Of a stretch of DNA of 64,000 nt, positions 50,985-55,875 are shown one piece after another; position 1 is the stretch's first letter; each line of letters starts with the position of its first letter. Location: positions 44,838 through 108,837 of the forward strand of contig JAZSOS010000033.1 in NCBI GenBank assembly GCA_045537045.1, read 5' to 3'. This stretch comes from Eubacteriales bacterium. Its GTDB lineage: Bacteria; Bacillota; Clostridia; Oscillospirales; JAAYXM01. The notes under the pieces are model-generated. The model saw only the letters and a program-made list of their open reading frames with translations. It did not search any database and was not told the origin of the DNA. A program made the translations under genes and the position numbers.

Positions 50985-51138
50985 AGTGAAAAAACCATCC
51001 TTTAACCGCTCATTTTACATATAAATATAATATAACATATAAAAAGGTAAATTGCAAGGAAAACAACTCTGTTTTTTGTTGCAAACGGACGGATTATATT
51101 GTATAATTTATAATAGTATATTATGGAGTTGATTTACC

Positions 51139-53358
51139 TTGTATCATAAGCTCAGTATAGAAGAAACCTTAAAGGCGTTTGATGTTAACCCCGAAACGGG
51201 ACTTTCCGATAAAGAGGCGCATCACCGCACTTCACAGAGTGTGACAAAGAGCGACGGTTCTTCGTTTTTCAAATTTGCGGCGCGGTCTATCTCCCGCCCC
51301 GTTATCATCATTCTATTTGTTTCTGCAATCCTCTATGCCGCACTCGGAGGATGGATTGAGGCTCTCCTCATTGCGACTGTTATCACCCTGCACACCGTTT
51401 TTTCTGCGGAGTGCAAGCGCCGAGGAGAGCGAACCCTTGACCGCTCGGTTTCTGCATCGGTAACGCACGCAATTGTTTTGCGCAACGGAGCTAAGATGAA
51501 GCTTTCCTCTGACCGCCTTGTTGTCGGCGATGTCGTTACGCTCAAACCCGGGCGCGTTGTTCCCGCGGATTTGCGCCTTATATCAACAGAAAACCTTATT
51601 ATCGACGAAAGCGCGCTTACGGGACGTGCCCGCGCGGAAAAGGACTGTGACTATCAGAGCACAAGCGATGTCCGCATAGAATTTCGCGACAACTGCGCCT
51701 TTGAAGGCACGGTTGTTCTTGAAGGACGCGGCGATGGCGTTGTCATTGCAACGGGTATGTCCACCGAAATGAGCCGTCTGACACTCCCGCTCGACGTTCC
51801 GGAAAAAGACACCTCTCCGTCTTTTTCACGCATAGAAAAGCTCACTCGCCGGTTAAGTATTATAACAAGCCTTGCGTGTGTGGCAGTTTTTGCAATATCG
51901 CTTGCATATGACGTAGGCTTTCTTACGGCACTTCTTGCCTCGGCATCCCTTGCGGTTGCCGCCATTCCCGAAAGCTTCGGCACAATTGTTCTCACAAGCC
52001 TTGCCCGGGGTGCGGAAAAACTCCGTTCGGAGGGTTTTTCGGCAAAGAACATGCGCGCAGCAGAGATGCTGGGAGAGGTGAGCATCTTCACCACAGAGCT
52101 TCCGAAAATGGGGGTTGCGGCTACGTACTCAAGCGGACGCATACATTCCCCGCAGGAGGAGGACACAATTCCGTTCCTTGAAGGGCTTCTTCTCTGTGAG
52201 CTTAAAAACCCGTCGTTGTATGCTTTTGCATCGCACAAGTGCGATGCGGAAAACGTTTCCGCAAGCTTCCCGCGCATCGGCGAATATATGGGCGAGGTTG
52301 CAACCACGCTCCACCGAGCAGGAGAAACAACAATATCCTACACCGGCGGCAATGCATCCGAAATACTCTCGCGTTCAACCCTTATCTGGGATTTCGGGCG
52401 CGTGAGAACTCTTACAGCTTCCGACCGCGAGGAAATTGAAGAGTGCATCCGCACTTTTGAAGAAGACGGTTACACCCAGACAGCGCTGGGGCTTCGCTCG
52501 GGCGATGATGTCCCGTGCGATAACAACCTCATTTTCCTTGGCATTGCGGCAACCCGTGCAGAGGTTAATGAGGCGGCAAACCCTGACACCGCGGCACTTA
52601 ACGCGGCGGGTGTGCGCGTGCTTCTTCTCACCGAGGGTGATGCGGAAAAGGCGCGCCTTGGCGCAACGGCACTGAAAATCCCGTGCGACAACATACTCTG
52701 CGCACGCGAGCTTTCCTCTCTCTCCGACGAGGAGATATACGAACGTATAAATGACACCTTTGTTTTTGCGTCTCTGCACGCACAGGACAAGGTGCGTATA
52801 ATAAATGTTCTAAAGTCTTACGGCTATTCTGTTGCTTCAGTAGGGGATGGAATATCCGATGCGCCCGCGCTTGATGCATCAGACATCGGCATGAGCGACC
52901 TGCACGCACGCGATGCAGCAAAAGACGCTTCTGACGTTATTTTTGACGGCAGCTTCTCTGCCGACCGCGCAATAATCCACGGCAAAATTATCCGCACAAA
53001 TATCCGCCGTGCCGTGACGTACCTTGCCGCGGCAAACACGGCTGAGCTTATATGCGTGCTTCTCTCCGCCGCCTGCGGCTTTGGATTCCCGCTTACAGCA
53101 CTGCAGATTCTTCTTGTAAATCTTATCACGGACACATTCCCCGCTCTCTTGCTTGTGCGCGGCGGATTCCTTCAGAAAAATCCGTCCCGTATGGCATATA
53201 TCTGGGGCGCGGTTCTCGGTCTTTTAATGCCGTTTGTCTTCCGCGTTCTCACTCAGACAACAGGACTTTTCCTTGCACAGTGGATTACCTTTGCCGCACT
53301 CACAGCAGGCGAGCTTTTGTTGGCGCTTCCGATGTATTTTGCCGGGCGCAGAAAGTAG
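51139..53358 (+). CDS. degenerate P2A-like cation P-type ATPase lacking the catalytic aspartate motif
   Basis: GLS, LVVGDVV...VPADLRL...IDESALTG, ATGMSTE, AAIPE, GDG, NLITD identify the family; DKTGT is replaced by FTTELPKM. Confidence 0.85.
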   Translation: MYHKLSIEETLKAFDVNPETGLSDKEAHHRTSQSVTKSDGSSFFKFAARSISRPVIIILFVSAILYAALGGWIEALLIATVITLHTVFSAECKRRGERTLDRSVSASVTHAIVLRNGAKMKLSSDRLVVGDVVTLKPGRVVPADLRLISTENLIIDESALTGRARAEKDCDYQSTSDVRIEFRDNCAFEGTVVLEGRGDGVVIATGMSTEMSRLTLPLDVPEKDTSPSFSRIEKLTRRLSIITSLACVAVFAISLAYDVGFLTALLASASLAVAAIPESFGTIVLTSLARGAEKLRSEGFSAKNMRAAEMLGEVSIFTTELPKMGVAATYSSGRIHSPQEEDTIPFLEGLLLCELKNPSLYAFASHKCDAENVSASFPRIGEYMGEVATTLHRAGETTISYTGGNASEILSRSTLIWDFGRVRTLTASDREEIEECIRTFEEDGYTQTALGLRSGDDVPCDNNLIFLGIAATRAEVNEAANPDTAALNAAGVRVLLLTEGDAEKARLGATALKIPCDNILCARELSSLSDEEIYERINDTFVFASLHAQDKVRIINVLKSYGYSVASVGDGISDAPALDASDIGMSDLHARDAAKDASDVIFDGSFSADRAIIHGKIIRTNIRRAVTYLAAANTAELICVLLSAACGFGFPLTALQILLVNLITDTFPALLLVRGGFLQKNPSRMAYIWGAVLGLLMPFVFRVLTQTTGLFLAQWITFAALTAGELLLALPMYFAGRRK

Positions 53359-53367
53359 GTTTTTGCT

Positions 53368-53994
53368 ATGGCTTCTGAAATTGAGCTTAAATATGCTCCG
53401 CCCGCGGATTTGCGGGCGGAAACGCTGTTTTCTGATGAACGCATTGCCCCGTTTTCCAAAAAACGGTTCCGGTATGAAATGCACACGGAATATCTTGATA
53501 CGGAAAACAGCGATGCGAAAAAGAGCGGCATAACGCTTCGCCGCCGCTTTGAAAATGGCGAGAGCGTGCTTTATGCAAAATGCAAAAGATACGATGCAGA
53601 TGCGCTGAGCGTGCGCGGTGAGTGGCGCGTAATTGGCGATGATATCATAAGCGCGGCAAAGCGTTTGTATGATGCCGGCGCACCGACGGAAAACCTTTGT
53701 GGGCTTCCGCTTTTAGTCTGCGCTTCCGTGCGTTTTGTTCGCGAAGAGGTTCTTGTCACACCGTATGATGGCTTTTCCTTTCTTCTCTCTTTTGATGATG
53801 GAGTTTTCGGTGAGAACAAGTACTTTACGGAAATTGAACTTGAGCTTGTTTCGGGAAGTGAGGAAGAACTTGTAGCCTTTGGCAATGCCCTTGCAAAAAA
53901 ATACAAACTTGTTTCCGAACCACGTTCAAAATATGCAAGAGCGCTGGAAGCAGGAGGAAATTATGGAATATATTGCAATAAACAAATGATTTAA
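53368..53994 (+). CDS. CYTH domain protein (triphosphate tunnel metalloenzyme)
   Basis: EIELKY, YLDT, LRRR, EIELEL, SKYARAL. Confidence 0.88.
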   Translation: MASEIELKYAPPADLRAETLFSDERIAPFSKKRFRYEMHTEYLDTENSDAKKSGITLRRRFENGESVLYAKCKRYDADALSVRGEWRVIGDDIISAAKRLYDAGAPTENLCGLPLLVCASVRFVREEVLVTPYDGFSFLLSFDDGVFGENKYFTEIELELVSGSEEELVAFGNALAKKYKLVSEPRSKYARALEAGGNYGIYCNKQMI

Positions 53995-54012
53995 CCGTAT
54001 TTGGAGGAAGTT

Positions 54013-55875
54013 ATGGAGTATATTGCAGGAAAATATGATATAGCCGTTATCGGCGCGGGACATGCGGGCATTGAGGCGGCGCTCTCTGCCGCACGGCTCG
54101 GTTGCCGCGTTGCGTGCTTCTCTATAAATCTCGATTCTGTCGGGAATATGCCGTGCAATCCCGCAATCGGCGGCACGGCAAAAGGACACCTCGTGCGCGA
54201 GATAGATGCCCTCGGCGGTGAGATGGGACGCGCGGCAGATGATACGTGCATCCAGTATCGCATGCTCAACCGCGGCAAAGGTCCGGCGGTATATTCTCTG
54301 CGTGCGCAGGCAGACCGCCGCGCATATCAGGCGAGAATGAAGCGAGTTCTTGAAGCTACGGACAACCTTGACCTTATTCAGGCGGAGGTTGTTGATATCG
54401 GCATTGAAAACGGGGCTGTCACATCCGTCCTTACCGCAACAGGCGGACGCTATCTCTGCCGGGCGGCGATTGTCGCCACGGGCACATACCTCGGCGGGAA
54501 AACAACCGTCGGCGAAACGGCGCGCATCGGTGGCCCTGACGGAATGTTTGCCGCAACAGAGCTTACGGGCAATCTTCTCCGCGCAGGAATTGAACTTCGC
54601 CGCTTCAAGACGGGCACTCCCCCGCGCATCAATGCGCGCAGTGTGGATTTTTCCGCAATGGAGCCGCAACCGGGCGATACGGACATCTATCCGTTTTCGT
54701 TTGATACGGAGCACGAAATTGAAAACCGCGCAATATGCCATCTTACATATACCAACGCCGAAACCCACCGCATTATCCGCGAAAACCTGCACCGTTCTCC
54801 CCTTTTCTCCGGAAACATAGAGGGTGTCGGTCCGCGCTACTGCCCGTCTATTGAAGACAAGGTTATGCGCTTTGCGGAAAAAGAACGGCATCAGCTTTTT
54901 ATTGAACCGATGGGACTCGGCACTGACGAAATGTACATTCAGGGGCTTTCTTCCTCTCTCCCCGAGGATATCCAGCTTCTTATCGTCCACTCCATCCGCG
55001 GACTTGAAAATGCACAGATAATGCGCTTTGCCTACGCCATAGAATACGACTGCATCGACCCTCTCACGCTCCTTCCGACGCTTGAGGTAAAGACGGTTTC
55101 GGGTCTTTACGGCGCAGGACAGTTTAACGGCTCGTCGGGATACGAGGAGGCCGCGGCACAAGGGCTTCTTGCCGGCATCAACGCCGCACGAAAGCTTCAG
55201 GGGAAAACCCCCGTTATCCTTGACCGCTCGGACGCATATATCGGTACGCTTATTGATGACCTTGTCACCAAAGGAACTAACGAGCCATACCGCATGATGA
55301 CCTCGCGCTCGGAATACCGTCTGTATCTACGTCAGGACAACGCAGACCTACGCCTTACGGAGCTTGGATATGAGATAGGTTTGGTCAGCGAGAAAAAGTA
55401 CAACAGAATGATAAACAAGCGCTCAGCGTGCGAGCGCGAGCTTGCCAGAGTTGAAAAGGCTATAATCCCGCCGGGCAAGGAAATTAACGACTTTCTCCAA
55501 AACGCCGGAACGTCACCGCTGGTCACTGGTGCATCCGTCGCAGACCTTATTCGCCGCCCTCAGCTTACATACGAAAGCCTTGCGCCGTTTGACAAAACGA
55601 GAAGCGAACTTCCATACGATGTTCGCGAGCAGGTGGAAATTTCGCTGAAATACGACGGATATATAAAGCGACAGAAGGTGCAGATAGAGCAGTTTAAAAA
55701 GCTTGAGGGCGTTAAAATCCCCGACGGAATAGATTATATGTCGCTTATCGGACTTCGCACAGAAGCACGGCAGAAGCTTACTAAAATTCGTCCCGGCTCC
55801 GTCGGGCAGGCATCACGCATATCGGGCGTAAGCCCTGCAGACATCGCCGCACTGCTGCTGTATCTGAAAAAATAA
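54013..55875 (+). CDS. mnmG: tRNA uridine-5-carboxymethylaminomethyl modification enzyme MnmG
   Basis: [58 protein letters not shown]. Confidence 0.97.

Follow-up and report, generated by a model that had tools for sequence, protein, structure and literature searches.

We analysed a 64,000-nucleotide stretch of an Eubacteriales genome (contig JAZSOS010000033.1, positions 44,838 to 108,837), referred to as the window herein, and conclude that a gene at its positions 51139..53358 very probably descends from a P2A-type (LMCA1/PMR1/SERCA-like) Ca2+ pump, has lost catalytic activity and is maintained by selection. The gene, which like all features below lies on the forward strand, is an uninterrupted open reading frame of 739 codons with a TTG start, and its product is a degenerate P2A-type ATPase that we call the pseudo-pump. 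Our analyses showed its motif losses, the single origin of the degenerate forms, their positional orthology to intact pumps, purifying selection and a P-type fold. In P-type ATPases every step of the conformational cycle depends on the phosphorylation of a single aspartate. Since the pseudo-pump has no DKTGT loop, no TGES loop and no nucleotide pocket, its sequence, read against established P-type chemistry, implies that it should not run an ATP-driven E1P/E2P (Post-Albers) cycle. Its present role is very probably a new one that does not involve pumping. Although the protein is P2A by descent, it lacks the catalytic features that define the group and should not be classified as a pump; it fits instead a working definition of a pseudoenzyme, that is, an enzyme homolog whose catalytic residues are gone and which is under purifying selection.

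An earlier note on this DNA, made from its letters, had described a 739-amino acid (aa) frame with P2A architecture, and family models, alignment to LMCA1 and a predicted fold all bore this out. The window protein scored 120.5 bits (7.8e-35) against the Pfam model E1-E2_ATPase (PF00122), well above the cut-off of 28.1 and sufficient for superfamily homology, and it matched Cation_ATPase_N at 4e-8; it fell below the cut-offs of the Pfam Hydrolase (P-domain) and Cation_ATPase_C models. The only NCBIfam model that it passed was the generic P-type model TIGR01494 (112.5, cut-off 62.3). Its top NCBIfam matches were PMR1/SPCA- and SERCA-type Ca2+-ATPases, which, unlike the pseudo-pump, possess the phosphorylation chemistry, and it scored far under their equivalog cut-offs (TIGR01522 for PMR1, 249.5 versus 798.3 bits; TIGR01116 for SERCA, 218.2 versus 703.4 bits). 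The closest solved relative was the Listeria Ca2+-ATPase LMCA1 (PDB 6zhh, 6zhf and 9evc), both by sequence (6zhh_A, 7.3e-65; profile 1.7e-214) and by fold. LMCA1, however, is a functional pump that has every catalytic motif and 10 transmembrane (TM) helices.

Alignment to intact pumps gave the state of each motif in the window protein, and the motif readings of the earlier note proved correct throughout. The phosphorylation motif ICSDKTGTLT is replaced by IFTTELPKM (I316-M324; 52084..52110), a segment six residues shorter than DKTGTLTQN. HMMER paired SIFTTE of the query with SVICTD of LMCA1, which places E320 on the catalytic Asp ahead of a 6-column gap, as expected from the reported Asp-to-Glu change and in-frame deletion. 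In the A domain, the dephosphorylation loop TGES reads TGRA (residues 161-164; 51619..51630). The N domain is shortened (residues 336-465; 52144..52533), with FDSxRK deleted and KGA reading GGN (403-405), such that YTKGA of intact pumps appears as YTGGNASE (residues 403-408); the Lys of KGAPE is Gly in 85% of the clade of degenerate proteins described below. DPPR is absent, ITGDH of intact pumps reads LTEGD, with TEGD in place of TGD(H) at residues 498-501 (52630..52641), and GDGISD replaces GDGVND at residues 569-574 (52843..52860). The hinge motifs DPPR, TGDN and GDGxNDxP are therefore all missing or altered, though T498 and D574 are kept. T498, K551 (52789..52791) and D574, which we assign to HAD motifs II (Thr), III (Lys) and IV (Asp), occur in 41/41, 39/41 and 41/41 clade members, respectively. 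The HAD motif I nucleophile loop, DxDx(T/V), is replaced by [D/E][I/L]P, and the window copy carries Glu at its first position. The claim that all cytoplasmic chemistry had been lost thus held for DKTGT, TGES, KGA, DPPR and TGD but not for these three residues.

The membrane part, on the other hand, retains the P2A ligand set. A PEGL-type motif is found in M4 (IPES, residues 276-279, with P277 and E278; 51964..51975), and the Asn, Glu, Asn, Thr and Asp ligands of M5 and M6 are present in NTAE (residues 633-636, with N633 and E636; 53035..53046) and NLITD (residues 661-665, with N661, T664 and D665; 53119..53133). Together with E725 on M8 (53311..53313), we presume that E278, N633, E636, N661, T664 and D665 correspond to the site I and site II ligands of SERCA. 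At the position of E725, LMCA1 has an Arg, which we take to fill the place of the SERCA site-I Glu. E725, the FDSxRK deletion, the deletion of a 14-17-residue piece of the M6-M7 (L6-7) loop and the loss of M9-M10 are changes beyond those that the earlier note had listed.

To compare folds with SERCA and LMCA1, as the earlier note had proposed, we used an AlphaFold2 model built with the family alignment (pLDDT 85.3, pTM 0.71). The model has 8 TM helices rather than the ten of P2A pumps, in line with the absence of M9-M10 from the alignment, and M4 is unwound at P277. Foldseek returned only Ca-, Mg- and Na,K-pumps as matches and the predicted fold matched both reference pumps, with the best E-value for LMCA1 (3e-43). 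The highest TMq values were for E1-type states, namely 4kyt (SERCA E1, 0.76), 8iwp and 8iww (0.75) and 9evc (the E1-Ca state of LMCA1, 0.74).

The degenerate pattern is shared by a whole group of proteins. A search covering 5.8 billion proteins yielded 40 clusters at 48-95% identity, all of 733-768 aa save two of 819 aa and two fragments, and the pattern recurred at these identities in 39 full-length database proteins (window included). Below this group came 862-868-aa proteins at 35-38% identity, followed by ordinary Ca-ATPases of ~885 aa. In an alignment of 60 sequences, every member of the degenerate group had [D/E][I/L]P and a 6-column gap in place of DKTGTLTQN. The group also shows variability at the two positions after the TG of TGES, deletion of FDSxRK, mostly Gly for the Lys of KGA, absence of DPPR, T-x-x-D for TGD, a degenerate GDGxND, the 14-17-residue deletion in the M6-M7 loop and, except in the two 819-aa proteins, absence of M9-M10. 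When 1.84 billion representatives (50% identity) were searched with a profile, only P0019 (1258 bits) and P0121 (708 bits) were degenerate above the intact pumps, and P0122 (525 bits) and all proteins listed lower were intact. With only two degenerate representatives, the pseudo-pump family is narrow.

Its taxonomic limits were resolved within the GTDB-type family of the window genome, where 30 of 32 genomes matched the pseudo-pump query at E<=1e-100. In the genus of the window (g1), all 18 other species genomes matched at 51-95% identity, with the ~740-aa form wherever the gene was complete; the full-length gene could be extracted from 15 of them, and the degenerate pattern was present in those 15. 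The gene holds a conserved position. In the window it is followed 9 nucleotides (nt) past its stop by a CYTH (triphosphate tunnel metalloenzyme) gene with its ExExK motif kept (53368..53994) and then by mnmG (gidA; 54001..55875), and the order ATPase-CYTH(-mnmG) was found in 27 of the 30 loci, the remaining three of which stop inside the ATPase gene. At the same locus in the sister genera g3, g5, g6 and g7, 10/10 genes are intact (TGES, DKTGTLT, KGA, DPP, TGDH and GDGVNDAP) in frames of 869-889 aa. These positional orthologs (L025-L034; P0041-P0045, 862-868 aa; 33-40% identity) share with the pseudo-pump the domain order, the M4/M5/M6 ligands and a translationally coupled CYTH gene, but they keep TGES, DKTGTLT, FDSxRK, KGA, DPPR, TGDH, GDGVNDAP, the L6-7 loop and M9-M10 and have Gln on M8. 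Within the clade itself no close relative carries an intact DKTGT. A further genus, g2, represented by one genome with an 843-aa frame, has the 6-residue deletion and has lost TGES, KGA, DPPR and TGD, yet it keeps M9-M10.

In a maximum-likelihood (ML) tree of 46 rows, a single branch (SH-aLRT 100; stem 0.86 substitutions/site) set apart 22/22 degenerate rows. This clade sat within the intact orthologs from the same locus, closest to P0041 and P0042, and its placement together with synteny establishes P2A descent. The shared, rare 6-residue deletion supports the same grouping independently of the tree. This shows that the degenerate forms have a single origin, in the common ancestor of two genera (g1 and g2) of one Oscillospiraceae-like family. 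From the distribution of the lesions we infer that the pump gene ahead of CYTH and mnmG would have lost KTGTLT, TGES, the N-domain nucleotide elements, DPPR, TGD and part of the M6-M7 loop in the g1+g2 ancestor, that Glu would have replaced the M8 Gln in g1 (the 819-aa forms included), and that M9-M10 would have been lost at a later step in the main g1 group. Two intact-type proteins also deviate from consensus. P0041 (863 aa), the nearest intact sister, is slightly eroded (TGEK for TGES, DKTGALT for DKTGTLT, DLPR for DPPR and TGDD for TGDH) and perhaps represents a pump that is weakened or in transition. In P0241 (881 aa), a Ca-ATPase-like representative that is canonical in other respects, DTTGT takes the place of DKTGT.

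We next assessed selection with Nei-Gojobori estimates of dN/dS (ω), the ratio of nonsynonymous to synonymous substitution rates. In 10/10 unsaturated pairs (dS 0.09-0.68; five genomes), ω of the pseudo-pump was 0.041-0.059. The same method gave 0.045 (dS 0.52) and 0.062 (dS 0.98) for intact orthologs and 0.15-0.25 for the adjacent CYTH gene; 11 further pseudo-pump pairs with dS > 1.5 gave 0.11-0.20 and are saturated. The earlier note had suggested looking for a clade that shares the DKTGT loss with dN/dS < 1, and this combination of clade-wide loss and strong constraint supports its view of a repurposed pseudoenzyme rather than a decaying gene. A decaying pseudogene or an assembly artefact has the loss of catalytic motifs to recommend it and nothing more, and we consider it highly improbable: frames are uninterrupted in the other g1 species (n=18), ω is at the level of intact orthologs, the start codon and Shine-Dalgarno sequence are conserved and the same lesions recur in independent assemblies. 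The recurrence in these assemblies and in the 39 full-length database proteins rules out chance, an assembly error or a one-off.

When ω was computed per domain, all parts were below 0.17. The phosphorylation segment (301-335) and M5-M6 were lowest at ~0.01, the A, N and P domains fell at 0.02-0.065 (N, 0.045-0.065) and M7-M8 was highest at 0.08-0.16. The cytoplasmic domains are thus constrained as strongly as the membrane core. In deeper comparisons the pseudo-pump diverges faster than the intact 888-aa paralog encoded elsewhere in these genomes. For instance, identities to the window genome in G020, G013, G014, G021, G028 and G025 were 67, 64, 53, 55, 55 and 54% for the pseudo-pump and 83, 82, 78, 78, 77 and 77% for the paralog. 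Among the closest relatives the order is reversed, with the pseudo-pump more conserved (95 and 94%) than the paralog (91 and 91%).

To follow individual residues, we counted changes on a tree of 41 degenerate sequences. The phosphorylation-site residue was Asp in 31/41 and Glu in 10/41, with at least five changes between the two, and it was acidic in 41/41, which suggests that charge rather than nucleophile identity is under selection. The Asp-to-Glu change is therefore real in the window copy but is not the defining lesion, since 31 members keep Asp; what defines the clade is the KTGTLT deletion together with a fixed Pro at +2 (P322 in the window protein). T498 and D574 were invariant, and the first Asp position of GDGxND (570) varied freely and had changed at least 11 times. 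Most of the clade-invariant residues fall in the A, N and P domains, although raw conservation cannot be compared with that of the intact set, as the clade is phylogenetically narrower.

The same counts qualify the reading that the ion-site residues had been kept. The residues of IPES, NTAE and NLITD are indeed present in 33-41 of the 41 members (E278: Glu 33, Asp 3, Tyr 5; N633 36/41; E636 36/41; N661 35/41; T664 37/41; D665 41/41), but in one subclade four or five of them have given way to other residues. In this ligand-less subclade (P0020, P0022, P0023, P0030, P0036 and L020/G014), M4 has PYG instead of PEG, the M5 Asn and Glu and the M6 Asn are lost and the gene is intact, so the ion site appears to have been abandoned or retuned. 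E725 is Glu in 38/41 members, and its counterpart is Gln in the four nearest intact sisters.

What the protein does can be proposed with less assurance. Our tentative preference is for a non-pumping, cation-dependent conformational switch. According to this proposal, the protein would, in an E1-like state, accept a cation (probably Ca2+) from the cytoplasmic side at the M4/M5/M6/M8 site that it has retained, the tightly constrained link between M4-M5 and the P domain would then reposition the conserved A/N/P headpiece, and the headpiece would serve as the output surface, acting as a sensor or regulator on a partner. We favour such a switch over a leak or a scaffold because constraint is strongest in the headpiece and the M4-M6 core. 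In broader terms, it is conceivable that a pump was converted to a sensor or to a gated pathway; once the ATP chemistry had gone, the M8 Gln-to-Glu change would have completed a SERCA-like two-site pocket, and the three cytoplasmic domains would have been kept as a headpiece that signals in response to the cation and has acquired a new ligand or partner.

Several observations weigh against this interpretation or loosen its support. The ligand-less subclade keeps an intact gene, hence the clade-wide function cannot depend on a complete ion site. Conservation of T498, K551 and D574, along with Asp in 31/41 members, means that some phosphate or metal chemistry of the P domain is possible in part of the clade. 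In the model, the E1-like conformation may be no more than predictor bias. The five genomes behind the unsaturated dS values are close kin, such that the ω values are not independent. Lastly, the ML tree came from a quick LG+G4 search in which the g2 row was flagged as a long branch.

Much of the same evidence can be read in other ways. A passive pathway, in which Ca2+ (or Ca2+/H+) would move down its gradient through the retained site by way of a uniporter, exchanger or gated leak, would account for the ligands kept in most members, the extra acidic ligand gained on M8, the very low ω of M5-M6 and the loss of the ATP-driven gates, the L6-7 loop and M9-M10. A bare pore, however, needs no A, N and P domains, and their constraint at the level of the membrane core argues against a bare leak or channel. 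In addition, the outward gate of canonical P-type pumps opens only in E2P, and one subclade lacks most of the ligands, so we regard a passive pathway as unlikely. We hold a similarly low opinion of an ion-independent scaffold or membrane anchor, whose headpiece would bind a partner or small ligand while the membrane part localises it. The position of most invariant residues in the A, N and P domains and the persistence of the ligand-less subclade would suit such a role, and CYTH is a candidate partner: 26/26 intact pairs have a gap of -17 to +29 nt between the ATPase stop and the CYTH start, with overlap in 18/26, and ExExK and all tunnel residues are invariant in 26/26 CYTH sequences. Yet this coupling is the same beside intact and degenerate pumps across the whole family (window and loci L007-L034); the pairing thus predates the degeneration and does not explain the change. 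Moreover, at the G011 locus ~440 nt of CYTH are missing beside an intact pseudo-pump (95% identity), and in the majority of members constraint on M5-M6 and on the ion ligands is among the strongest.

Residual or altered catalysis, either through phosphorylation of Asp-keeping members by a donor that replaces ATP, such as acetyl phosphate or Pi, or through a HAD phosphatase-like activity, would draw on the same retained P-domain residues and on the Asp of the majority. We judge this quite improbable given the invariant Pro at +2, the deletion of KTGTLT, the loss of TGES and the variability of the first Asp of GDGxND. The repeated interchange of Asp and Glu with unchanged constraint also argues against it, and the window copy has Glu. 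Replacement of Asp by Glu at the phosphorylation site inactivates SERCA, though a literature search for D351E gave no support for this point. The conformational switch remains the reading that we prefer.

Among published proteins, the nearest analogue that we found is human TMEM94/ERMA, which has a P-type-like architecture without TGES. A structural study (PMC12134183) found for it neither ATPase activity nor a phosphorylation cycle, whereas PMC13322241 makes the case for an ER Mg2+ ATPase, and its status is contested. TMEM94/ERMA is a eukaryotic protein with 10 TM helices and no close relative of the pseudo-pump, whose family has clear intact orthologs for comparison. The P4-ATPase domain of apicomplexan GC-alpha was considered as another analogue and dropped, as PMC7858053 states that it looks functional. 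No bacterial family of non-catalytic P-type ATPases was described in the portions of the literature searched, including a term search of a 2023 review (PMC10654040). If a conversion from pump to sensor or gated pathway is true, no bacterial family of non-catalytic P2-type ATPases would have been described before this one, and its intact positional orthologs would supply the controls. The chemistry was discarded at one datable point, and purifying selection at pump level across a genus of uncultured bacteria followed; in sister genera the locus still holds intact orthologs. The pseudo-pump is in this sense a natural experiment on the uses, be it ion sensing, gated leak or scaffolding, that a P-type scaffold may have without ATP, and on which residues serve structure and which catalysis.

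With regard to the paralog, the intact 888-aa protein was found in 12/18 g1 congeners. A general role of the pseudo-pump as a regulator of this paralog was considered and rejected, since 6/18 congeners have no paralog at E<=1e-60, two of them in genomes at least 90% complete. In G017, G027, G016 and G022 we found no second P2A-like gene at E<=1e-60, and their only E1-E2_ATPase matches were the pseudo-pump and one unclassified pump of 716-784 aa. This implies that the function of the pseudo-pump is independent of the intact paralog, and these four species may be without a working P2A Ca2+ exporter. Homology-based annotation would call the pseudo-pump, the only P2A-like gene found in the four species, a cation pump and thereby overstate the capacity for Ca2+ export of the bacteria that carry it. 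In current records, members are annotated as 'HAD family hydrolase' in two sources and as 'hypothetical protein' in one, and most are unnamed. In G019, whose genome is 99% complete, the intact-type paralog matched in two frames (198 aa and 724 aa; G019:C10:103673-105942) and may be frameshifted or disrupted.

Regarding CYTH, a literature search found no link between it and P-type ATPases, and a complex prediction for the pseudo-pump and CYTH (score 0.00, mark 0.32) gave no answer. Outside the family, CYTH homologs were present in 27 of 143 sampled genomes of the order; of 22 loci fetched from these, 3 (L062-L064, from one genus of family f23) adjoin a distant P-type ATPase and 19 do not. The G011 locus (G011:C34; L006) was left out of the spacing count. 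Between its ATPase stop and mnmG, only the C-terminal ~35 codons of CYTH match, and the gap is either a real deletion or an assembly artefact of a metagenome-assembled genome.

Lastly, we inspected the region 5' of the gene. A consensus scan gave a candidate sigma-70-like promoter, TTGCAA-17-TATAAT (51079..51107), which matches at 10/12 positions and is supported as a pattern only. A Shine-Dalgarno sequence, GGAG (51125..51128), lies 10 nt 5' of the TTG and within a conserved GGAGTTGAT leader. Among 17 orthologs, the TTG start was kept in 14 and a Shine-Dalgarno-like core in 16. The conserved TTG start after this leader (51120-51141 and the orthologous leaders) suggests that translation initiation is deliberately modest.

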